Shown: positions 211 to 14,304 of the stretch, in pieces
How the letters are laid out: each line of letters opens with the position of its first letter
Numbering within the stretch: position 1 is the first letter of the stretch
NCBI GenBank assembly: GCA_944386305.1
Contig: CALXAN010000075.1
Location: 1-16,373, forward strand
Length of the DNA: 16,373 nt
Direction of reading: 5' to 3'
DNA from: an uncultured Clostridia bacterium
GTDB lineage: Bacteria; Bacillota; Clostridia; Oscillospirales; UBA644
Made by a program: the position numbers and the translations under genes
The notes under the pieces: model-generated
Seen by the model: the letters and a program-made list of their open reading frames with translations, nothing else
What the model was told of the DNA's origin: nothing
The model's database searches: none

Positions 211-239
211 TTGCTCTTTGGAAGGATTTGTAGTATAAT
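211..239 (+). promoter_or_regulatory. Candidate sigma70-type promoter for the WYL-regulator operon
   Basis: TTGCTC (211-216), 17-bp spacer, TATAAT (234-239). This is about 50 nt upstream of the RBS GGGAGG (275-280) and the GTG start at 289. A small hairpin AGAGC-N7-GCTCT overlaps the -35 and could be an operator. Confidence 0.4.
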
Positions 240-288
240 ACAGATAAAGAATCAGAATGTATATGTTTTAATATGGGAGGTGAACGCT

Positions 289-1527
289 GTGTCGTCGTAT
301 AGCGAGTTAATTAAGAATTTTGAAAAGGTCCGCAGTTATATGCGTGAGTTTTATGTTTACGGTTTTAAGAGTCGTGAGGAATATGACAAAAAAAGCGCCC
401 GTTCTTACGATGATGAGCGCCGCCGGATGGAAAGCTGGCTCGGAGATCATATGAGCTTTGTCCGTACGCCCGAGGGCAAAAACGTGTTCATTTCAATCGA
501 CAGTCGTGTATCACAGCACAACCCCTTTTATAAAGCATTTAAGGCAAAGAGTTTTACCGACGGCGATATCACATTACATTTTATTTTGTTCGATATTTTG
601 CACTCACCCGAGACAGTCCTTTCCCTGCCGGAAATACTCGCAAAAATTGACGAGTATTTGTCGGGGTTTGAAAATCCGATGGTGTTCGATGAGTCTACAG
701 TCAGAAAGAAACTGAAGGAATACATACAGCAGGGCGTCATCAGCTCTGAAAAAGTGGGCAGAAAAATATTGTACCGCAGGGCAGATGACGTAGTTTTGAC
801 GAATATTGCCGATGTGCTGAATTTTTATTCTGAAGTTGCGCCCTGCGGTGTGATAGGCTCTTTCTTACTTGATAAAGAGGAAAATAAAGACGATGTTTTC
901 AGCTTTAAGCACCACTATATAACTTCCGCCATGGACAGCCATGTTCTGTCGGTGTTCTTTAAAGCTATGCGTGAAAAAAGCGTCGTAACGGTGTCTAACC
1001 TGAGCCGCCGCGCGGATGAGCCCCGAATGAACAGAATCATACCCTTGCGCATATTTGTCAGCGTTCAAAACGGCAGGCAGTATCTGCTTGCGTATCAGCC
1101 TGATTTTAACGTGATCAAATCATTTCGGATAGATTATTTATCCGATGTAAAAATTGAAGAACCTACGCCTCGTTTTGACGAACTGCGGGCCGAACTTGAT
1201 GAAATGCAGACAAAAATGTGGGGCGTTATCGCCAAACGAAACCGTTACGGCGAAGATAATATCGAGCATGTAAAGTTTACGGTTAAGGTAGCGGACGACG
1301 AAGAATATATTGTGCGCCGTCTTGAGCGCGAGAAAAGGATCGGACATATTGAAAAGATAGACAATAATACCTATTGTTTCACTGCAGACGTGTATGATAC
1401 AAACGAGCTTATTCCTTGGATCCGCACCTTTATCTGCAGGATAACCGAGCTGCAGTTCTCTGAACGCACGCTTGAAAATCAGTTTAGGCGCGATATTGAA
1501 AAGATGTATCGTATGTACGGAGTTTAG
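289..1527 (+). CDS. WYL-domain transcriptional regulator-like protein: N-terminal wHTH-like region, WYL domain, C-terminal WCX-like extension
   Basis: ORF-track frame 211..1527. I place the start at the in-frame GTG 289 because GGGAGG lies 8 nt upstream and the track's TTG at 211 sits inside the promoter. The central motif RQYLLAYQPDFNVIKSFRIDYLSDVKI matches the WYL signature (hydrophobic-Y-L...FR-hydrophobic-D-R/Y-I). The C-terminal ELIPWIRTFICRITELQ resembles the WCX 'wilsfG..veVleP' end. Confidence 0.75.
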   Translation: MSSYSELIKNFEKVRSYMREFYVYGFKSREEYDKKSARSYDDERRRMESWLGDHMSFVRTPEGKNVFISIDSRVSQHNPFYKAFKAKSFTDGDITLHFILFDILHSPETVLSLPEILAKIDEYLSGFENPMVFDESTVRKKLKEYIQQGVISSEKVGRKILYRRADDVVLTNIADVLNFYSEVAPCGVIGSFLLDKEENKDDVFSFKHHYITSAMDSHVLSVFFKAMREKSVVTVSNLSRRADEPRMNRIIPLRIFVSVQNGRQYLLAYQPDFNVIKSFRIDYLSDVKIEEPTPRFDELRAELDEMQTKMWGVIAKRNRYGEDNIEHVKFTVKVADDEEYIVRRLEREKRIGHIEKIDNNTYCFTADVYDTNELIPWIRTFICRITELQFSERTLENQFRRDIEKMYRMYGV

Positions 1528-1538
1528 GAGGCGCAGGC

Positions 1539-2444
1539 ATGATATTTAATGAAATATATTCCGCCTATTATAACGCCGTAGCAAAAATGATTACCGCTGT
1601 TCTTGACGGCAAGACAGACCAAAAAACTCTCAGCCAAATAGTTTGCGACAATGCCTTCGGTGAGAGTATGCTGACAGTGCTACCTTCTCTCAAAAGCGGA
1701 AAGTGGCAGCTTATAAAAGCGGATCTGACCACTCCGCTAAAGCATATCCCTACGCTGCCGCTGACTCTGATGCAAAAGCAATGGCTGAAAGCCATATCTC
1801 TTGATCCTCGTATAAAGTTATTCGGTGCGGAAATAAGCGGCCTTGAAGAAGTAGAGCCCCTGTTTACTGCAGATGATTATTTAATATATGATAAGTACAG
1901 TGACGGGGATCCGTATGACGATGAGGACTATATTAAAAGATTTCGGATCATTTTATCGGCCTTAAAGGAAAAGCAGCCGCTTAAAATACAGACGGTTACC
2001 CGAAAGGGTAATACCGTCTCGATGACGGTCATGCCGCAGCGCTTGGAATATTCCGAAAAGGATGATAAGTTCAGGCTTATCAGTACGGGGTGCCGATATG
2101 GAGAAATTGTAAACCTTACTCGAATTAAAACATGTGAAAAATGTTCTGCATTTAAGGCGCATTATCATGCTGCGCCGATAAGGGAATCGATGACGCTGCG
2201 CGTTGTCGACGAGCGTAACGCGCTTGAGAGATGCCTGCTCCATTTCGCGCATTTTGAAAAACGGGTGGAAAGGGCTGCTCAAAAGCAATACCTTGTCCAT
2301 ATCCGATATGATAAGAGCGATGAAACCGAAATGGTAATCCGCATTTTGAGCTTTGGACCTATGGTCGAGGTAACGGCGCCGAATGAATTCAGAAATTTAA
2401 TAATTGACCGCCTAAAAAGCCAAAAAAGCTGTGGACTTATTTGA
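1539..2444 (+). CDS. Second WYL/WCX-family regulator-like protein with a divergent N-terminus, probable partner of the upstream WYL protein
   Basis: ATG 1539 with RBS AGGAGG overlapping the stop of the previous gene, suggesting translational coupling. The C-terminus MVIRILSFGPMVEVTAPNEFRNLIIDRL is the canonical WCX ending of WYL regulators. The middle segment KFRLIS...IVNLTRIKTCE is a degenerate WYL-like motif. Confidence 0.7.
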   Translation: MIFNEIYSAYYNAVAKMITAVLDGKTDQKTLSQIVCDNAFGESMLTVLPSLKSGKWQLIKADLTTPLKHIPTLPLTLMQKQWLKAISLDPRIKLFGAEISGLEEVEPLFTADDYLIYDKYSDGDPYDDEDYIKRFRIILSALKEKQPLKIQTVTRKGNTVSMTVMPQRLEYSEKDDKFRLISTGCRYGEIVNLTRIKTCEKCSAFKAHYHAAPIRESMTLRVVDERNALERCLLHFAHFEKRVERAAQKQYLVHIRYDKSDETEMVIRILSFGPMVEVTAPNEFRNLIIDRLKSQKSCGLI

Positions 2445-2460
2445 GTTCGCAGCTTTTTTT
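2424..2460 (+). terminator. Weak candidate intrinsic terminator after the WYL pair
   Basis: AAAAGCTG (2424-2431) pairs with CAGCTTTT (2450-2457) around a large 18-nt loop that contains the stop codon. A T7 run follows (2454-2460). The large loop and AU-rich stem base limit confidence. Confidence 0.3.
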
Positions 2461-2482
2461 CCGTGTTTTGAAGGGGAAATAT

Positions 2483-2491
2483 TGGTAAAAT
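2483..2491 (+). promoter_or_regulatory. Candidate extended -10 promoter (TGgTAAAAT) for the SPFH–rtcB operon
   Basis: TG-N-TAAAAT at 2483-2491 with no good -35. It would give a leader of about 380 nt before ATG 2883. No sigma54 -24/-12 element was seen. Confidence 0.25.
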
Positions 2492-2610
2492 ATGCATGCA
2501 GGGTTTCTTTGAGCGAGTGTTTGAGATATCACTGCGGTGCGCAAGGCTATGCCGACGCGTATGCCCAAAAAAAAGAGTCCCTTGCATAATCTGTTGAGTC
2601 CTGCAGGCTT

Positions 2611-2650
2611 TGACAGATGCAGACGCGGGTTCGAATCCCGCCGTATGCGA
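2611..2650 (+). other. tRNA-like 3' fragment: canonical T-arm plus a 3' acceptor strand, with no matching 5' half
   Basis: GCGGG-TTCGAAT-CCCGC (2625-2641) is a textbook T-stem-loop (G53 T54 T55 C56 R57 A58 ... C61). It is followed by a 7-nt strand CGTATGC and a discriminator-like G. Only 41 nt lie between the best 5' partner (GCATAAT, 2584-2590, 5 of 7 pairs) and the T-stem, too few for D and anticodon arms. It closely resembles the tmRNA/tRNA 3' end (..GACGYGGGTTCGAnTCCCRCCGT..) but no full gene fits. Confidence 0.4.
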
Positions 2651-2882
2651 TTACAGCATATTCCATGGTTTGGTTACTGCCGCAAACGGCAAATTATTTC
2701 AGGTTCAGTGATTACTCTGTTCAGGCAATGCTCCCGCTGCCCTGTCCGGTAACGGATACCGTGTATCAAGCATATAGGCCAAAAGTTTCCTTTCCGCCCA
2801 TATGCGCGACCGCTCAAGTTTTCGGCCGCAACGGGAGCATGAGTAATTGCAATCGTATTTTGAAACCTCGGGGAGGCATATT

Positions 2883-3983
2883 ATGAAAAAGATTATCATC
2901 AATGAAAATCAAAGAGGATTTTTGTTTAAAAACGGAAAGTATGTTAAAATGCTTACGGCAGGCAGGTACCATGCCTGCGGCGGTAAAGAGATCGAAGTAG
3001 TAGATTTGGATAGTCCTATAGTTTCCGGCAAATGCGCATTGGACGTCATTCTGAACGATAAAGCTGTCGCAGGCGCCGTATCGGTCGTTGAAGTCGCCGA
3101 CCGGCAGTTAGCTCTGCATTTTGTAAACGGGAAATTTGCTTCAGTGCTTTGCCGCGGCAAATATGCCTTTTGGTCCCAAATAGATAAGCATGAATATAAA
3201 TTTGTGGATATCTCTACGCCTGAAGTGGCTGCCGATGTGCCGGAGTACATTTTTTCTGAGATTCCCGCCGCCTATTATACCAAGGTCGAGGTTTTGGAAT
3301 ATCAGAAGGCAAGACTTTATTTCAATCAGAAATTCGTAAGGATACTGGATGCCGGTACATATTATTTCTGGGAAAACGGCGTAAAAATTGATGCAAGCTT
3401 TGTTGACGTAAGGCTTACTCAAATGAACATTACCGGTCAGGAAATTTTAACTCAGGATAAAGTTTCTCTTCGCATCAATTTTGTCTGCAGCTACCGCGTT
3501 ACCGATTATGTGAAGATTTTGACCGAGATAGACGATTTTGCCGAGCAGATGCATGTGGCGGCGCAGCTGGCTCTGCGCGAGTATGTCGGCAGGTATAAAC
3601 TGGATGAAATTCTTGATAATAAGGCTCAGATGTCCGAGTTTGTGCTTGAAAAACTGAAAGCAAAGGAAAAGTCGCTGTATGTCGAAATCACGGACGCCGG
3701 CGTAAAGGATATTATTCTGCCCGGTGAAATCCGCGAGATTATGAACACTGTCTTGATAGCCGAAAAACGCGCTCAGGCCAATGTGATCACCCGCCGCGAG
3801 GAGGTCGCGTCTACCAGGTCCCTGCTCAATACCGCCAAACTGATGGACGAGAACCAAACCCTCTATAAGCTCAAAGAATTTGAGTATATCGAGCGTATCT
3901 GCGAAAATGTCGGCAATATCAATTTAAACGGCAACGGCGACGTGCTGACTCAGCTCAGGGGTATCTTGAGAGGCAATGTATAA
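2883..3983 (+). CDS. SPFH / band-7 (stomatin-prohibitin-flotillin-HflKC) family protein, apparently cytoplasmic, with a triplicated N-terminal hairpin motif
   Basis: ATG 2883 with RBS GGGGAGG (2870-2876). The track ORF starts earlier at 2847 without an RBS. The SPFH core is QEILTQDKVSLRINFVCSYRV ... VKDIILPGEIREIMNTVLIAEKRAQANVITRREEVASTR. Three N-terminal repeats resemble the start of the SPFH fold: NQRGFLFKNGKYVKMLTAGRYH, RQLALHFVNGKFASVLCRGKYAFW and QKARLYFNQKFVRILDAGTYYFW. No hydrophobic transmembrane segment is present. Confidence 0.85.
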   Translation: MKKIIINENQRGFLFKNGKYVKMLTAGRYHACGGKEIEVVDLDSPIVSGKCALDVILNDKAVAGAVSVVEVADRQLALHFVNGKFASVLCRGKYAFWSQIDKHEYKFVDISTPEVAADVPEYIFSEIPAAYYTKVEVLEYQKARLYFNQKFVRILDAGTYYFWENGVKIDASFVDVRLTQMNITGQEILTQDKVSLRINFVCSYRVTDYVKILTEIDDFAEQMHVAAQLALREYVGRYKLDEILDNKAQMSEFVLEKLKAKEKSLYVEITDAGVKDIILPGEIREIMNTVLIAEKRAQANVITRREEVASTRSLLNTAKLMDENQTLYKLKEFEYIERICENVGNINLNGNGDVLTQLRGILRGNV

Positions 3984-4011
3984 GCGTAAAAATATCAGAA
4001 AGGAATTTATT

Positions 4012-5220
4012 ATGATAGAGATTGCAGGCAAGTTTAATACTGCCGTATGTTATACAAACGAGCTTGAGCCTACCGCATACGCTCAAATCGAGTCCGTATG
4101 CAATGAGGAGGCCTTTAAGGATTCTAAAATCCGTATAATGCCCGATGTGCATGCCGGAAAAGGCTGCACTATCGGCACGACAATGACTGTGACGGATAAA
4201 GTCGTACCGAATATGGTGGGCGTGGATATCGGCTGCGGAATGTACACTGTATATTTGGGTAAAGTCGACATTGATTTGGAAAAGTTTGATGCTGCCGCGC
4301 ACTCTATTCCCTGCGGCAGAAATGTTTGGGAGAGCAGACAGGAGAGGTTTGATTTGACCGCGCTGTGCTGCTACCGCAGCCTAAAAGACACCAAAAGACT
4401 TAAGAGGAGCCTCGGTACTTTAGGCGGCGGCAATCACTTTATAGAAATCGACGCCGACGCCGACGGCAGTAAATATTTGATTATCCATTCTGGCAGCCGT
4501 AACCTCGGCACGCAGGTCGCTGAGTTCTATCAGGGCATTGCCGTCGATTTGAGCCTTGGCAAAGAAGATTATTTCAAAAAGCGCGACGAAATAATCCGTA
4601 CGTATAAAGAGACCGGCCGCAGAAGTGAAATACAGGCTACTCTCAAAAAAATGGCTGACGAGTGGGAGAATAAGGAGCCTGCAATGCCCCGTGAGCTCTG
4701 CTACCTGTACGGCGCTTTTATGGAGGACTATCTGCATGATATTAATATCTGCCAGCGGTTTGCACAGCGCAACCGTGAGATGATGGCGCAGATATTGCTG
4801 CATAAGACAGGCCTTGCAGCTCTTGAAGCATTTCAGACCGTTCATAACTATATAGATGTCGACGAAATGATTCTTCGCAAAGGCTCTGTATCCGCTAAGG
4901 CGGGAGAAAAACTCTTAATCCCCATAAATATGCGAGACGGAAGCCTTATCTGTGTGGGCAAAGGCAACGAGGATTGGAATAATTCCGCGCCTCACGGTGC
5001 AGGAAGGCTTATGTCCCGCTCCGCCGCTTTTGAAAGACTGACAATGGAAGAGTATCGGGCGCAGATGGCGGGCATCTATACCACCTGTGTGAATACTTCT
5101 ACTCTCGACGAGTCGCCAATGGCTTACAAAAATATGGATGAAATCATTGAGAATATTGAACCCACTGCAGAGATTATCGCGCATATCAAGCCCATATACA
5201 ATTTTAAGGCGGCAGAGTGA
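4012..5220 (+). CDS. rtcB: RtcB-family RNA 3'-phosphate/2',3'-cyclic-phosphate ligase
   Basis: ATG 4012 with RBS AAAGGAA, 28 nt after the SPFH stop. Hallmark RtcB motifs are present: MPDVHAGKGCTIG, PNMVGVDIGCGM, GTLGGGNHFIEI, SAPHGAGR. The N-terminus (KFNTAV...) aligns with E. coli RtcB. Length is 402 aa. Confidence 0.9.
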   Translation: MIEIAGKFNTAVCYTNELEPTAYAQIESVCNEEAFKDSKIRIMPDVHAGKGCTIGTTMTVTDKVVPNMVGVDIGCGMYTVYLGKVDIDLEKFDAAAHSIPCGRNVWESRQERFDLTALCCYRSLKDTKRLKRSLGTLGGGNHFIEIDADADGSKYLIIHSGSRNLGTQVAEFYQGIAVDLSLGKEDYFKKRDEIIRTYKETGRRSEIQATLKKMADEWENKEPAMPRELCYLYGAFMEDYLHDINICQRFAQRNREMMAQILLHKTGLAALEAFQTVHNYIDVDEMILRKGSVSAKAGEKLLIPINMRDGSLICVGKGNEDWNNSAPHGAGRLMSRSAAFERLTMEEYRAQMAGIYTTCVNTSTLDESPMAYKNMDEIIENIEPTAEIIAHIKPIYNFKAAE

Positions 5221-5475
5221 TTCTTTTGAGTTTTTCAGTTCGATTCGAACACGGGTATTATCGAGGCCGCCTTTGGTTATGTAATCAGCGATAACTGCAT
5301 TGAGCGGTGCCATGCAGACCGTGCGCGTTTCAATAGGTCAGATTCAAAATCGGATAACCCTGTGTGAAAACGCGGCGCAAATGCGAAAATAACCGTTTTC
5401 TTCGGTCGATTTTTAAAGATAATTCCGTACTTTTCCGCCCTGCTGTCCCGTATGCTTCAGCTGTATAAAAGCCAA

Positions 5476-5519
5476 GCCGTCTCCGGCCGCATCTGCGGCC
5501 GGGGACGGCTGTCTCTTTT
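5476..5519. terminator. Strong GC-rich hairpin between the convergent rtcB(+) and serA(-) ends; intrinsic terminator, probably used by both
   Basis: GCCGTCTCCGGCCGC (5476-5490), loop ATCT, GCGGCCGGGGACGGC (5495-5509), then TGTCTCTTTT on the plus strand. An A-rich stretch (TATAAAAG) precedes it, which would be the U-tract for the minus-strand reading. Confidence 0.6.
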
Positions 5520-13225: not shown

Positions 13226-13260
13226 AGAAGCGGAACCATTGCGAGGAAGTCAATCGAACA

Positions 13261-13355
13261 GGTAAAGCGTATTTTCAAAAAAGCGGCGGTAAAGCGTGAC
13301 TTTTTTCAAAAAAAGGAGCGGCGGTAAAGCGTGAATTTTTTCAAAAAGGGAGCGG
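13261..13355. repeat. Three tandem direct repeats of about 27-35 bp: GGTAAAGCGT-(N2-3)-TTTT(TT)CAAAAA(AA)-G(GA)GCGGC
   Basis: Copies at 13261-13287, 13288-13322 and 13323-13355. Each contains the near-palindrome TTTTTTCAAAAAA. They are followed by the palindrome CCCGCGGG (13366-13373). Confidence 0.7.
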
Positions 13356-13430
13356 TACCGAGCGCCCCGCGGGCGAACTGCAGCGATAACCTGCCGGCGA
13401 AGCAGAGAGAATACATAAAATAGGGGATTT

Positions 13431-13610
13431 GAAAAATTTAGAGAATAAAAGAATTTGGAAAATAAAGAAAATAAGAAAAATTTAGAGAACAATAGAATTT
13501 AGAGAATAAAGAAAATAAGAAAATTTAGTGAACAAGAGAATTTAGAAAATAAAGAAAATAAGAAAAATCTAGAGAACAAGAAAATTTAGAGAATAATAGA
13601 ACATAGACAT
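13431..13610. repeat. A-rich minisatellite of about 4 copies with a 43-bp period, built from alternating 17-bp and 26-bp sub-units
   Basis: TTTAGAGAA-type starts recur at 13438, 13481, 13498, 13524, 13541, 13568 and 13585 (spacing 43, 17, 26, 17, 27, 17). The units are [TTTAGAGAAyAAnAGAA][TTTrGArAATAAAGAAAATAAGAAAAA]. No unique spacers separate them and all plus-strand frames have stops. Confidence 0.7.
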
Positions 13611-14111
13611 AGGATACAGAAAAATACGGAGAATGCAGCTATCGGCCGTCGAGCTGTTTGCTGCATGTTTGCGAATATTTCGACAATATTCTCAATCGTA
13701 TGTCTTCGCCGAGAGAAGTTTCTGAAGTCAAAAGCATGAGTCATAAAAGCAAATCATGTCGAAAAACATTAAAATAATCGAGCGTATTTCTCCCGCAATC
13801 AATGAGCGAATAAGCGAGGCGGAAAAGTCAGAAAAGTACGGATTTAATGGATAATAAAAATATTGTCGAAATCGCGTATAAGAATTCGCCTAAGTTTGAG
13901 CCCTATATTTTAAACGAAGGGAAATACGAAAAGCTTAAAGTCAACGAAGGGGATAAAACATTGTCTAAAGCAAAATTTCGACTTAGATTGAGTGTTTAGG
14001 GGTCGATGTTTTGCTCAGAATTTGCAATAAGGAGAGTTTGAGCAAAAAATGTTGACATCGAAAAAGTCTATGTATCGGCAGCATATTTGCGCAAACTTAT
14101 TTTTCGCAGAT

Positions 14112-14156
14112 ACGGCAGAGCCGCAGGATTTTCCTGCGGCTCTGCCGTTTTTTTAT
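14112..14156 (+). terminator. Strong rho-independent terminator in plus-strand orientation with no annotated plus-strand gene upstream
   Basis: ACGGCAGAGCCGCAGG (14112-14127), loop ATTTT, CCTGCGGCTCTGCCGT (14133-14148), then a T7 run (14148-14155). In the minus orientation no U-tract follows the stem. Confidence 0.65.
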
Positions 14157-14304
14157 CCATTATAACTGAGAAATAATCCTTTGTCTGAGTCCGCGGGTTT
14201 CGTCGATTTTCTTTCAACGACCGCCTCTTTCTTTATTGCATAGCGAGGCTCCGCGCTCTGAGGATTTTGCCGCGTCAGTCTTGCTCTGTTTGAACGTTGA
14301 TATC

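Follow-up and report, generated by a model that had tools for sequence, protein, structure and literature searches.

What do two adjacent WYL-family proteins, an SPFH/Band-7 protein and an RtcB RNA ligase do side by side in a Clostridial genome? The question is raised by a locus of an uncultured Clostridia bacterium (assembly GCA_944386305.1; the window, that is the whole stretch of DNA analysed, comprises 16,373 nt of contig CALXAN010000075.1), which a preliminary description had presented as a four-gene block. We found that WYL-A, WYL-B, SPFH/Band-7 and RtcB do form a module, which is shared by many gut Clostridia. They are no unbroken block, however: a non-coding gap of 438 nt (2445-2882), overlooked before, separates WYL-B from Band-7, and nothing in the locus is as informative as the RNA and the promoter box that this gap contains (Table 1).

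Gene content and conservation of the module

Synteny was observed directly in a sample of 80 loci, all from distinct species (species-level genomes). The WYL-A/WYL-B pair was found directly upstream of Band-7 in 47 of the 53 loci with at least 3 kb of upstream sequence, and RtcB within 1 kb downstream of Band-7 in 52 of 63, an adjacency of the four genes that is far beyond chance and that bears out their proposed linkage. An adjacent RtcB was absent in about 11 of the 63 loci, and what the WYL/RNA/Band-7 set does at its core may therefore be something other than ligation. Variant loci carried extra genes after Band-7, for RlaP (PF10127, 304 bits) and for a CCA-adding-type nucleotidyltransferase; these accessory genes encode RNA-repair enzymes, not nucleases or toxins. 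Such additions fit the RNA-repair 'syntax' that was reportedly described by Burroughs and Aravind in 2016.

Table 1. Features of the module and its surroundings in the window
Feature	Position	Strand	Basis
Putative sigma-70 promoter of the WYL-A/WYL-B unit, TTGCTC-17 nt-TATAAT	211..238	+	read from sequence
WYL-A, 412 aa	289..1527	+	Pfam, PADLOC, AF2, Foldseek
WYL-B, 301 aa	1539..2444	+	Pfam, PADLOC, AF2, Foldseek
Intrinsic terminator-like hairpin closing the WYL unit	2422..2459	+	terminator scan and sequence
Conserved 21-nt box GTTCGCAGCTTTTTTTCCGTG	2445..2465	+	aligned intergenic regions
Extended -10 element TGGTAAAAT of the RNA-band7-rtcB unit	2483..2491	+	highly conserved column block
RNA domain A, tRNA-like region	2498..2700	+	alignment A2 and pair counts
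Canonical tRNA T-arm GCGGG-UUCGAAU-CCCGC	2625..2641	+	conservation, compensatory changes
RNA domain B, nested multi-helix	2709..2849	+	RNAalifold, covariation, covariance model R1
Soluble SPFH/Band-7 ('slipin') protein, 366 aa	2883..3983	+	Pfam, PDB matches
RtcB 3'-phosphate/5'-OH RNA ligase, 402 aa	4012..5220	+	Pfam, motif alignment
Strong GC-rich hairpin, T-runs on both sides	5475..5510	.	terminator scan and sequence

All four gene identities, as first proposed, held directly in Pfam and PADLOC profile searches, Foldseek searches and motif alignment. WYL-A begins with a region of unknown type; its wHTH spans about residues 91-164, and its WYL and WCX domains residues 219-289 and 328-410, respectively. 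It scored 29.7 bits against Pfam WYL (gathering score (GA) 21.8) and 47.9 bits on the PADLOC WYL profile, with WCX below GA, and Foldseek matched it to DriD (1.9e-10) and PafBC (3.4e-10); its AF2 model was of low confidence overall (pLDDT 55), with 68-90 for the wHTH and WYL segments. Its start is most likely GTG 289, after a GGGAGG ribosome-binding site, and not 211, where the module had been taken to begin; a database protein (P0241) that is 100% identical to the query is likewise 412 aa long. In WYL-B a helical N-terminal region, with no detectable HTH, precedes a WYL-like beta-barrel (about 148-201), and the WCX domain occupies residues 216-297. Here WCX exceeded GA (24.3 versus 23.9 bits) and WYL did not (16.5 bits), the PADLOC WYL profile gave 31.7 bits, and Foldseek returned PafBC (8.5e-9), DriD, CapW and BrxR for an AF2 model with pLDDT 69.6. 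The predicted structures thus support a grouping of both proteins with the WYL transcription factors PafBC, BrxR and CapW, as had been suggested, and also with DriD. The nearest solved structures are the PafBC-RNAP and DriD-RNAP complexes, ligand-activated transcription activators that work on promoters with a non-standard -35. Since WYL-B has no detectable HTH and a profile comparison of WYL-A with WYL-B gave no significant similarity, a PafBC-like heterodimer would be an analogy only.

The SPFH protein (Pfam Band_7, 94.1 bits) has its core at about residues 148-346. It matched PH stomatin (6e-15), the PDB stomatin matches being confined to residues 161-346, and its N-terminal ~145 residues, as read from the sequence, repeat the SPFH N-terminal beta-hairpin motif twice more. 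A hydrophobic transmembrane segment was not seen in this protein. It has more than 7,600 homologues, some of which are named 'slipin family protein', and its gene follows a ribosome-binding site GGGGAGG at 2870-2876. RtcB (Pfam RtcB, 199.4 bits) kept all catalytic motifs (MPDVHAGKG, DIGCGM, GGGNHFIE, HSGSRNLG and APHGAGR) when aligned to P. horikoshii RtcB and is predicted to be catalytically intact. For its start, ATG 4012 with an AAGGA ribosome-binding site ahead of it is more probable than ATG 3976, which overlaps the Band-7 stop; the homologue alignments begin at residues 5-13 of the long form.

The module has a GC content of 45.4%, against 56.1% for the neighbours from serA to the FAD protein. 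The contrast noted earlier is thus real, although smaller than claimed, and is consistent with a fairly recent acquisition here; in other genomes the GC content of the module is near that of the flanks. The flanking genes in the window are housekeeping genes (serA, serC, cdaA and ybbR), and the flanking context differs between genomes. The hairpin downstream of RtcB is probably a bidirectional terminator shared with the convergent serA.

The structured RNA and the promoters of the two units

The terminator-like hairpin behind the WYL genes has a core inverted repeat at 2428-2455, a T tail to 2469 and a 5' arm within the C-terminal codons of WYL-B. Upstream of WYL-A, no conserved operator was seen in 51 loci, the region being unconserved beyond a generic -10 and a ribosome-binding site. 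Within the gap are the 21-nt box, the extended -10, which is not accompanied by a consensus -35, and a ~385-nt structured RNA whose 5' end was placed from the -10 alone. Relative to the transcription start so derived, the box lies at about -53 to -33. Its conservation was observed directly: the bases of the window are common to about 80-100% of 46 aligned intergenic regions, and 53 of 82 loci have a single copy of the composite motif of box and -10, on the + strand in every case. This conservation does not depend on the terminator hairpin, as the box was retained in four loci (L015, L025, L048 and L043) that have neither WYL-B nor the 5' hairpin arm upstream. Together with the unconserved region upstream of WYL-A, this points to the second unit as the regulated one, and the box is a candidate WYL operator or non-canonical -35 region.

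The gap RNA is large, conserved and structured, has a tRNA-like arm and matched none of the Rfam 15 families. At the 5' side of domain A we found the helices 2513-2515/2533-2535 plus 2517-2519/2530-2532, 2537-2542/2557-2562 and 2545-2547/2551-2553, followed by a hairpin at 2588-2617, the T-arm, a 3' hairpin (2643-2648/2656-2661) and a hairpin at 2678-2691. Helix 2537-2542/2557-2562 was 99.6% paired (at one pair AU 28, GC 10) and the 3' hairpin 92.7%, with both sides changed in 5 of 6 pairs, as compared with 25-56% for slid controls. The T-arm, whose core GGTTCGAATCC was found in about 65 of the 80 loci, was 99.5% paired, showed compensatory changes (CG>UA, GC>AU) and gave a partial match to the Rfam tmRNA 3'-end (22 bits). 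In 7 relatives ARAGORN placed a tRNA here; the RNA of the window was recognised as a tRNA neither by ARAGORN nor by the Rfam tRNA model. A tRNA-like acceptor pairing had no double compensatory changes and was about 5.8 kcal/mol less favourable than a competing fold.

Domain B is formed by the helices 2709-2717/2841-2849, 2728-2732/2836-2840, 2746-2750/2821-2825 and 2761-2763/2811-2813 and an apical hairpin (2782-2785/2790-2793), with invariant loops that include GGAUACCG, CCAAAAG, UUUCCGC, CUCAAG and GCCGC. RNAalifold gave 32 pairs with compensatory changes in 29; with the outer helix there were 42 pairs, 91.8% paired versus 34-42% when slid, of which 39 had changed on both sides. The covariation score was 0.570 versus about 0.10, and none of 500 shuffles scored as high. 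Covariance model R1 scored 137.4 bits (E 5e-25) at 2674-2882 of the window and matched 77 of 80 loci, once in each and directly upstream of Band-7; these include loci without RtcB or the WYL pair nearby. For domain B no family match was obtained in Rfam 15.

A proposed RNA-repair operon, its alternatives and its relatives

We consider it reasonably probable, and the best reading of the locus, that the two units together form an RNA-damage response module, in which the WYL proteins activate a ribonucleoprotein operon for RNA repair. The first unit (WYL-A and WYL-B) would be transcribed from an ordinary promoter up to its terminator, and the second, from the extended -10 promoter without a -35 that follows the invariant box, would yield the RNA and then the SPFH protein and RtcB. 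Beyond the genes and the RNA themselves, we infer DNA binding, ligand, heterodimer formation, RNA-protein binding and repair substrates. WYL-A, which bears the winged helix, may form a PafBC-like hetero-oligomer with WYL-B and bind the box, and a nucleic-acid ligand at the WYL domains would switch the second unit on; damaged RNA or RNA fragments are a likely ligand, by analogy with the sensing of tRNA fragments by RtcR. The RNA, with its T-arm-bearing tRNA-like domain and the new 42-bp domain, could form a scaffold with the soluble SPFH protein, much like Y RNA and Ro60, that offers broken tRNA-like substrates to RtcB, which would seal the 2',3'-cyclic-phosphate/5'-OH breaks.

It is conceivable, if unlikely, that the RNA is a cis-acting regulatory leader and not a trans-acting cofactor, its fold or an acceptor/hairpin switch controlling translation of, or read-through into, band7-rtcB. 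This control could operate through the sensing of a tRNA-binding factor or through a cut in the RNA, and the WYL proteins might bind this RNA instead of DNA, some WYL proteins being RNA-binding (e.g. the Cas13d accessory protein WYL1). Band-7 indeed comes straight after the RNA: from the closing helix to the ribosome-binding site there are about 20 nt, and no terminator is generally present between the two. The Shine-Dalgarno sequence has its complement in the conserved CUUUCC (2790-2795), an unbiased scan gave apparent covariation of a CUUU/GGAG pairing, and 2557-2563 can enter two mutually exclusive pairings, each about 93-99% compatible in 41 sequences; yet the alternative pairing was without double compensatory support and energetically disfavoured. 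In eight loci the RNA is separated from Band-7 by a gene of ~205 aa, so that it does not always adjoin the Band-7 ribosome-binding site. A simple device for sequestering a ribosome-binding site would be much less elaborate than domain B, which has 42 pairs and numerous invariant bases in its loops. Among analogues, the closest are the Y RNAs of rsr-rtcB operons, which are operon-encoded yet trans-acting.

Two other roles seem less probable still. As a decoy or sensor for anticodon nucleases, which we regard as distinctly improbable, the tRNA-like arm of the RNA would pass for a tRNA with a GUN anticodon (Asp, Tyr, Asn or His); once cut by a ribotoxin of the colicin E5 type or by a nuclease that phage triggers, it would give a cyclic-phosphate fragment that activates the WYL pair, and the breaks in the decoy as well as in genuine tRNAs would then be resealed by RtcB. 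Relatives have a hairpin beside the T-arm with a 7-nt loop YU-GUN-RA in 25 of 29 cases (GUC 12, GUA 6, GUU 6, GUG 1), the UGU motif is what colicin E5 and tRNA-guanine transglycosylase recognise, and 6 of the 7 ARAGORN calls carry Asp or His anticodons. The sensing of cyclic-ended RNA proposed for WYL factors, as cited in PMC9503650, and the RtcR response elicited by such tRNA fragments (PMC7790460) would agree with this. Nevertheless, the window RNA has GAGUC-CUGCA-GGCUU at 2596-2610 instead of an anticodon-like hairpin, many loci have a second T-loop-like hairpin or none at that position, and no nuclease gene is linked to the module. Very improbable, in our view, is a function in anti-phage defence or abortive infection, with SPFH and WYL as in BREX/CBASS-type islands and RtcB as effector or immunity protein. 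WYL regulators that gate BREX (BrxR) and CBASS (CapW) are structural neighbours here, and the lower GC content and variable flanks would suit such a function. However, a check for a defence-island location found no support in the housekeeping flanks, in PADLOC (no Band-7 match, a marginal and irrelevant one for RtcB (RT_UG31, E 0.002) and only generic WYL matches) or among 50,697 phage records, where no homologues were found. The accessory genes of variant loci argue the same way, and RNA repair counteracts ribotoxins, so that a defence label fits only broadly, as damage reversal.

The repair reading connects the module to earlier work, and the view that it is undescribed was overstated. According to bioRxiv 10.1101/312249, a combination of RtcB, Band-7/SPFH and a tRNA-like ncRNA ('b7a-tRNA', band-7-associated) was predicted by Burroughs & Aravind 2016, of which our module is a Clostridial variant; the same work is cited in PMC9503650 for the proposal that WYL transcription factors sense cyclic-ended RNA and regulate RNA-repair pathways. 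The rtc locus of P. aeruginosa contains a slipin gene (PMC13086221), and in Anabaena a slipin gene and rtcB were both strongly derepressed upon deletion of trcR, encoding a repressor whose action is lifted under antibiotic-induced translational stress (PMC10272220). RtcR is activated by tRNA fragments with cyclic-phosphate ends (PMC7790460). In Citrobacter freundii a full-length slipin homologue (32% identical) is divergent from and adjoins rtcR; the WYL pair therefore plausibly stands in the place of RtcR, which fits the sensor role first proposed for it, the sensing itself being presumed by analogy.

The four genes and their conservation

ORF listing and translation of the window gave four genes on the same strand within 211-5220, and the four-gene module (WYL, WYL, SPFH, RtcB) proposed in the preliminary description proved genuine, with profile searches (Pfam) supporting WYL, WCX, Band_7 and RtcB across the four proteins. 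WYL-A scored 29.7 bits with Pfam WYL (above the gathering score) and 19.1 bits with WCX (below the gathering score), and its AlphaFold model aligns over the full length of both DriD and PafBC. For WYL-B the scores were 24.3 bits with WCX, against a gathering score of 23.9, and 16.5 bits with Pfam WYL (below the gathering score). The generic WYL profile of PADLOC gave 47.9 bits for WYL-A and 31.7 bits for WYL-B. The SPFH protein scored 94.1 bits with Pfam Band_7 and the ligase 199.4 bits with Pfam RtcB; all catalytic motifs of the latter are kept (MPDVHAGKG, DIGCGM, GGGNHFIE, HSGSRNLG and APHGAGR align to RtcB of P. horikoshii).

The predicted structures of both WYL proteins match PafBC, DriD, CapW and BrxR in the PDB (Foldseek, E = 1e-8 to 1e-10), with a Foldseek probability of 1.0 for WYL-B to PafBC and DriD. 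The AlphaFold model of WYL-B has a mean pLDDT of 69.6; that of WYL-A averages only 55, with higher confidence in its winged-helix and WYL segments. The predicted winged helix of WYL-A covers residues ~91-164 (AF2, pLDDT 68-90); weak ArsR, PaaX and Penicillinase_R matches were found at residues 115-197, and LmrR and SmtB appear among the tail hits of Foldseek. No HTH was found in WYL-B by sequence, and its N-terminal model is of low confidence. The two WYL genes are separated by 11 nt and the pair is co-conserved.

Stomatin matches to the SPFH protein are confined to residues 161-346, and no hydrophobic transmembrane segment was found in it. The beta-hairpin motif typical of the SPFH N-terminus recurs two more times in the N-terminal part of the protein, as read from the translation. 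Two homologous database proteins (P0002 and P0004; 637-638 aa, 61% identity across the whole query) have their SPFH domain at 407-578 and therefore carry an extra N-terminal extension of ~270 aa, which possibly consists of more beta-hairpin repeats. The RtcB gene abuts or overlaps the Band-7 gene in the window.

A scan of one genome per species yielded 80 loci, all in Clostridia-class MAGs (including Oscillospiraceae, Acutalibacteraceae, Lachnospiraceae and Christensenellaceae), with a Band-7 identity of 61-87%. The survey of gene neighbourhoods in these genomes (tblastn with the four window proteins) showed that the combination recurs: WYL-A followed by WYL-B lies directly upstream of Band-7 in 47 of the 53 loci for which 3 kb or more of upstream sequence was available, and RtcB lies at most 1 kb downstream of Band-7 in 52/63 loci. 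For WYL-A, WYL-B and Band-7 alike, over 7,000 of at most 8,000 candidates were significant (E ≤ 0.001). Together, the synteny and the match numbers indicate a genuine, conserved module that occurs very frequently in metagenomes of gut and rumen.

In loci lacking RtcB, the genes after Band-7 are either unrelated or encode an RlaP nucleotidyltransferase (PF10127, 304 bits). RlaP (PF10127, ~300 bits) follows Band-7 at L063:8155-8904 and L072:8123-8887 (L-numbers denote related loci), and at L078 (3830-7149) the order is Band-7, RlaP, a CCA-adding-type PolyA_pol+HD enzyme and RtcB. The RlaP and CCA-adding-type additions in these variant loci are RNA-repair parts. At one locus (L007:13250-15096) the WYL-A/WYL-B pair is found ~5 kb downstream of Band-7-RtcB and not upstream; the promoter box, hairpin and RNA are still ahead of Band-7 there. 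In several other loci (L040:6363-6980, L021, L041, L042, L047, L051, L060 and L067) a conserved gene of ~205 aa without Pfam match, with motifs including IPYRIY...IYHCIFSRSYDGYVRQKHIEALL...ISYWNEYYRYDCYRYKDY, is inserted between the structured RNA and Band-7, and at L015:8261-8812 a related gene of 183 aa is situated between Band-7 and RtcB. This gene may encode an unrecognised accessory component of the module.

The putative promoter and structured RNA between WYL-B and Band-7

The most novel content of the locus is not the four proteins but the promoter box and the RNA in the gap between WYL-B and Band-7, both of which the preliminary description had missed. The gap spans 438 nt here; in most loci it is ~500 nt long, and it is conserved block-wise over its full length.

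Mapped features of the module in the window
Feature	Position	Strand	Basis or remark
WYL-A	probable start GTG 289	+	GGGAGG ribosome-binding site upstream; a 100%-identical database protein has 412 aa
WYL-B	1539-2444	+	ORF listing
Terminator hairpin	end of WYL unit, first element of gap region	+	terminator scan
Invariant box GTTCGCAGCTTTTTTTCCGTG	2445-2465	+	candidate operator; conserved across loci
Extended -10 TGGTAAAAT	2483-2491	+	~17-20 variable bases past the box
Domain A (tRNA-like part)	2498-2700	+	holds T-arm, 3' hairpin and 5' helix
5' helix	2537-2542/2557-2562	+	99.6% paired
Canonical T-arm GCGGG-UUCGAAU-CCCGC	2625-2641	+	99.5% paired, two covarying pairs
3' hairpin	2643-2648/2656-2661	+	5/6 pairs changed on both sides
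Domain B (42-bp domain)	2709-2849
SPFH/Band-7 protein	2883-3983	+	ORF listing
RtcB	start ATG 4012 more likely, else 3976	+	AAGGA ribosome-binding site before 4012

The promoter in the window has an extended sigma-70-type -10 and not a sigma-54 element. The composite motif of box plus -10 occurs exactly once per locus in 53/82 loci, on the + strand only and before Band-7. The box is more than the 3' arm of the terminator, because it is intact in four loci (L015, L025, L048 and L043) in which neither the WYL-B gene nor the 5' hairpin arm precedes it; L015, L025 and L048 have no WYL pair nearby at all. It constitutes a single, sharply defined candidate operator. No conserved operator was found upstream of WYL-A, a region that is not conserved among the loci, and this difference suggests that the WYL unit is constitutive and the second unit regulated.

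The sequence from ~2498 to the ribosome-binding site of Band-7 (~385 nt) behaves as a structured RNA. Within domain B, RNAalifold predicted 32 pairs, 29 of which show compensatory changes. Extended with the outer helix the domain has 42 pairs and is 91.8% paired, against 34-42% when the partners are slid by 1-3 columns; 39 pairs are changed on both sides and the covariation score is 0.570 versus ~0.10, with none of 500 shuffles as high. A covariance model of domain B matched exactly once per locus in 77 of the 80 loci, either directly upstream of Band-7 or of the inserted small gene, with a score of 137 bits for the window sequence and 110 bits for that of Subdoligranulum variabile. In the named strain S. 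variabile TSDC17.2-1.1 the domain lies directly upstream of a 71%-identical Band-7 gene.

Domain A resembles a tRNA in part. In relatives a hairpin with a 7-nt loop is found between the 5' part and the T-arm, and in 25 of 29 cases its loop can be read as a GUN anticodon loop (GUC 12, GUA 6, GUU 6, GUG 1); ARAGORN calls tRNA-Asp, His or Leu in the gap RNA of seven related loci. In the gap RNA of the window no tRNA was called by ARAGORN or the Rfam tRNA model, and a D-arm was not seen in the gap RNA. The window RNA is a shortened variant, in which ~40 nt are absent between the hairpin at 2588-2617 and the T-arm in comparison to the related locus L001. A second T-loop-like hairpin (GGGGUUCAACUCCCC), absent from the window, lies 20-40 nt upstream of the canonical T-arm in many relatives (L001, L003-L006, L009, L010, L012, L019, L022, L028, L040, L043, L058, L059, L061, L063, L065, L072 and L076), which suggests a partly duplicated tRNA-like unit.

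A tRNA-style acceptor stem of 7 bp (2557-2563/2642-2648), stacked on the T-arm, is compatible with 93% of 41 sequences. It was rejected as established fold: its positions vary on one side only, via G.U wobble and never by a double compensatory change, two helices that do covary could not form alongside it, and nearest-neighbour energies disfavour it by 5.8 +/- 3.3 kcal/mol. On these three grounds a tRNA-like cloverleaf is only possible as an alternative or protein-stabilised conformer. Two other pairings were discarded, namely a long-range helix suggested by RNAalifold (GCAAG, 2498-2502, with CUUGC, 2581-2585), which is only 45.8% paired in the alignment of domain A, and a closing helix CACUG/CAGUG around the tRNA-like region, for which inspection of the alignment, without a formal count, revealed no covariation.

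Rfam 15 gave no gathering-level match over the gap RNA region in the window and 10 related loci. Permissive scans returned partial T-arm matches to tmRNA (22 and 14 bits), and the weak matches to Plastid-psbl-rps4, Thermales-rpoB and Xoo2 were dismissed as chance or T-arm-only. Elsewhere in the related loci (L024:1352-1586, L052:1534-1617 and L034:7011-7235, all on the - strand) a T-box leader, a Gut-1 RNA and a group II intron domain were matched, which are unrelated to the module. A coding function of the gap was likewise rejected, as the open frame changes from locus to locus: open stretches are distributed over the three frames (22/20/11), and depending on the locus the T-arm falls into any one of them. 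In 53 loci the + strand of the gap RNA shows a strong depletion of stop codons (median longest open stretch 103 codons in ~520 nt), which may be compositional.

Relation to known RNA-repair systems and possible mechanism

The preliminary description had not recognised the architecture as a named system, yet a system of RtcB, Band-7 and b7a-tRNA had been predicted already. As summarised in a passage of a later preprint, Burroughs and Aravind (2016) found RtcB encoded beside a Band-7 protein and a predicted tRNA-like ncRNA ('b7a-tRNA'), the latter two being proposed as a functional parallel of Ro60/Y RNA and as a scaffold with a cofactor RNA for ligation; the same passage presents b7a-tRNA as a prediction without experimental validation as of 2018 (bioRxiv 10.1101/312249). 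In a passage by the same authors the 2016 work is cited for WYL transcription factors that sense cyclic-ended RNA and regulate RNA repair (PMC9503650). A slipin gene is contained in the rtc locus of P. aeruginosa (PMC13086221), and in Anabaena rtcB is controlled by the repressor TrcR, the repression being relieved under translational stress; in a trcR deletion mutant the slipin gene alr0740 and rtcB (all3526) were both strongly derepressed (PMC10272220). We also found a full-length, 32%-identical Band-7 homologue in Citrobacter freundii (L081, NZ_CP151862.1), divergent from rtcR and followed by a nucleotidyltransferase. Within the rtcR-slipin intergenic region (L081 4546-4995) there are a TGGCAC...TGGCA element resembling a sigma-54 site and a T-arm-like GTGGGTTCGATTCCCA, and the region is probably the proteobacterial counterpart of b7a-tRNA; ARAGORN calls no tRNA at this locus, and a search for domain B there with the covariance model found nothing, also with filters off. 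Given the 2016 prediction and the slipin/rtc links in P. aeruginosa, Anabaena and Citrobacter, a partnership of SPFH protein and RtcB with a tRNA-like RNA is already known as a predicted system.

The module shares with the b7a-tRNA system the adjacency of RtcB and a Band-7 protein, as well as RlaP-type nucleotidyltransferases in variant loci, and its partly tRNA-like RNA next to Band-7 may correspond to b7a-tRNA. It differs, as far as the 2016 system is described in the papers citing it, in the conserved WYL pair as putative regulator and in its ~385-nt RNA, which is tRNA-like only in the T-arm (and in some relatives in an anticodon-like arm) and includes an additional 42-bp covarying domain, for which the proteobacterial locus examined gave no match. 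With the Rtc system of E. coli and Salmonella it has in common that RtcB would be under a dedicated ligand-sensing activator, and with that of Salmonella (Rsr, YrlA/YrlB Y RNAs) also an operon-encoded RNA with a tRNA-like domain and a scaffold (Ro60 there, putatively SPFH here). In contrast, no ORFs for RtcR (the CARF-AAA+ sigma-54 activator), RtcA or Rsr were found in the window, the promoter is not of the sigma-54 type, and the gap RNA matches no Rfam Y RNA family such as YrlA. The Anabaena regulon differs in that TrcR is a non-WYL repressor, that the genes are dispersed instead of forming one operon and that no structured RNA is reported. Apart from Y RNAs and b7a-tRNA, we found no large structured RNA described in the literature in association with rtcB or Band-7.

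PafBC is a heterodimer encoded by two adjacent paralogous WYL genes, and both PafBC and DriD activate promoters with a non-standard -35 upon binding single-stranded nucleic acid (ssDNA). Both WYL-A and WYL-B find their best structural matches in these activators, at a sequence identity of 12-17%. However, the N-terminus of WYL-A is ~90 residues longer, WYL-B shows no HTH and the adjoining genes relate to RNA repair and not to the DNA-damage response. A paralogous relation between WYL-A and WYL-B, as in PafBC, was not supported by profile comparison (hhalign), which gives no significant similarity between the two.

The preliminary description had placed the WYL pair in the sensor role of RtcR. 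By analogy with Citrobacter, where the slipin gene lies beside rtcR, the pair would occupy the position of RtcR, and this part of the proposal stands; the part that called the system unrecognised has to be dropped. The WYL pair seems to be a lineage-specific substitute for RtcR. The locus suggests that the same repair module can be fronted interchangeably by a CARF (RtcR) or a WYL sensor.

In the most likely mechanism, which we infer, WYL-A (carrying the winged helix) and WYL-B would bind the 21-nt box, and binding of damaged RNA or its fragments by the WYL domains would activate the -35-less promoter, much as ssDNA does with PafBC and DriD. RtcR, which senses tRNA fragments with cyclic-phosphate ends (PMC7790460), offers a second parallel. 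Structured RNA, soluble SPFH scaffold and RtcB would then all come from this transcript, and the RNA-SPFH particle would help RtcB to find or hold broken tRNA-like substrates. A further reading, which we consider rather improbable, makes the gap RNA an uncatalogued class of large structured RNA, in which a module mimicking GUN/queuosine-family tRNAs (with the loop seen in most relatives) is fused to the new 42-bp domain, and places it at the centre of a WYL/SPFH/RtcB ribonucleoprotein as sensor and cofactor; the WYL heteromer would respond at the box when this RNA or the mimicked tRNAs are cleaved or damaged, and the SPFH-RNA scaffold would guide RtcB. If this sensor and cofactor role were true, gut Clostridia would have an RtcR-independent, self-reporting RNA-damage response.

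Rival readings concern either the RNA or the module as a whole. The gap RNA, lying ahead of Band-7, could be a cis-acting leader or switch of the second unit, or, with its GUN loop in relatives, a mimic of GUN tRNAs that serves as decoy or sensor for anticodon nucleases of the E5 type; the WYL-activated repair mechanism has the RNA act together with the SPFH protein instead. The least likely reading is that of an anti-phage system. The two WYL proteins do match PADLOC-DB 2.0, but only in its generic CRISPR-associated WYL profiles; Band-7 has no match there and RtcB only a marginal and irrelevant one (RT_UG31, E 0.002). No phage homologue of the module was found, and carriage on plasmids was rejected as well, the matches in plasmid collections being mostly to chromids or large replicons. 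Nor is the defence-island setting raised in the preliminary description borne out, as the flanks are housekeeping genes (serA, serC, a class-V aminotransferase, cdaA, ybbR and an FAD protein).

The locus bears on the substrates of RtcB and on the roles of its non-enzymatic partners (Ro60/Y RNA and Band-7/tRNA-like RNA). It represents a compact and very widespread version of the Band-7 branch with all parts mapped (the WYL pair, taken as constitutive, the candidate operator, the large RNA with a predicted secondary structure, the SPFH protein and the ligase), and adds a sizeable structured RNA without Rfam 15 family match. As the RNA-plus-Band-7 core is present in S. variabile TSDC17.2-1.1, the predictions for this poorly understood branch of RNA repair are directly testable.

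Base composition and flanking sequence

The low GC content that had been put forward as a sign of horizontal acquisition is real, although the contrast is smaller than was estimated (45.4% in the module versus 56.1% in the adjacent core genes of the window). In 19 other genomes the GC contents of module and flank track each other (means 47.4% and 46.5%, r = 0.75), and in the closest relatives, L001 and L004 (82-87% protein identity), they are 41-42% for the module and 44-45% for the flanks. Together with the non-conserved flanks, these values fit a module acquired here fairly recently from a Clostridial donor of lower GC.

Two terminator-like hairpins (1-24 on the + strand and 62-44 on the - strand) are found at 1-62, ahead of the WYL-A promoter, which suggests that the module is insulated from the upstream gene. 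Further downstream, between the FAD-protein gene and a 216-aa ORF without Pfam hit, there is a purine-skewed stretch of ~1 kb (13250-14250) of low GC (34-39%) without sizeable ORF, containing a 44-nt tandem repeat in four copies (13431-13605, 88% matches) and a 35-nt repeat in two copies (13282-13355).
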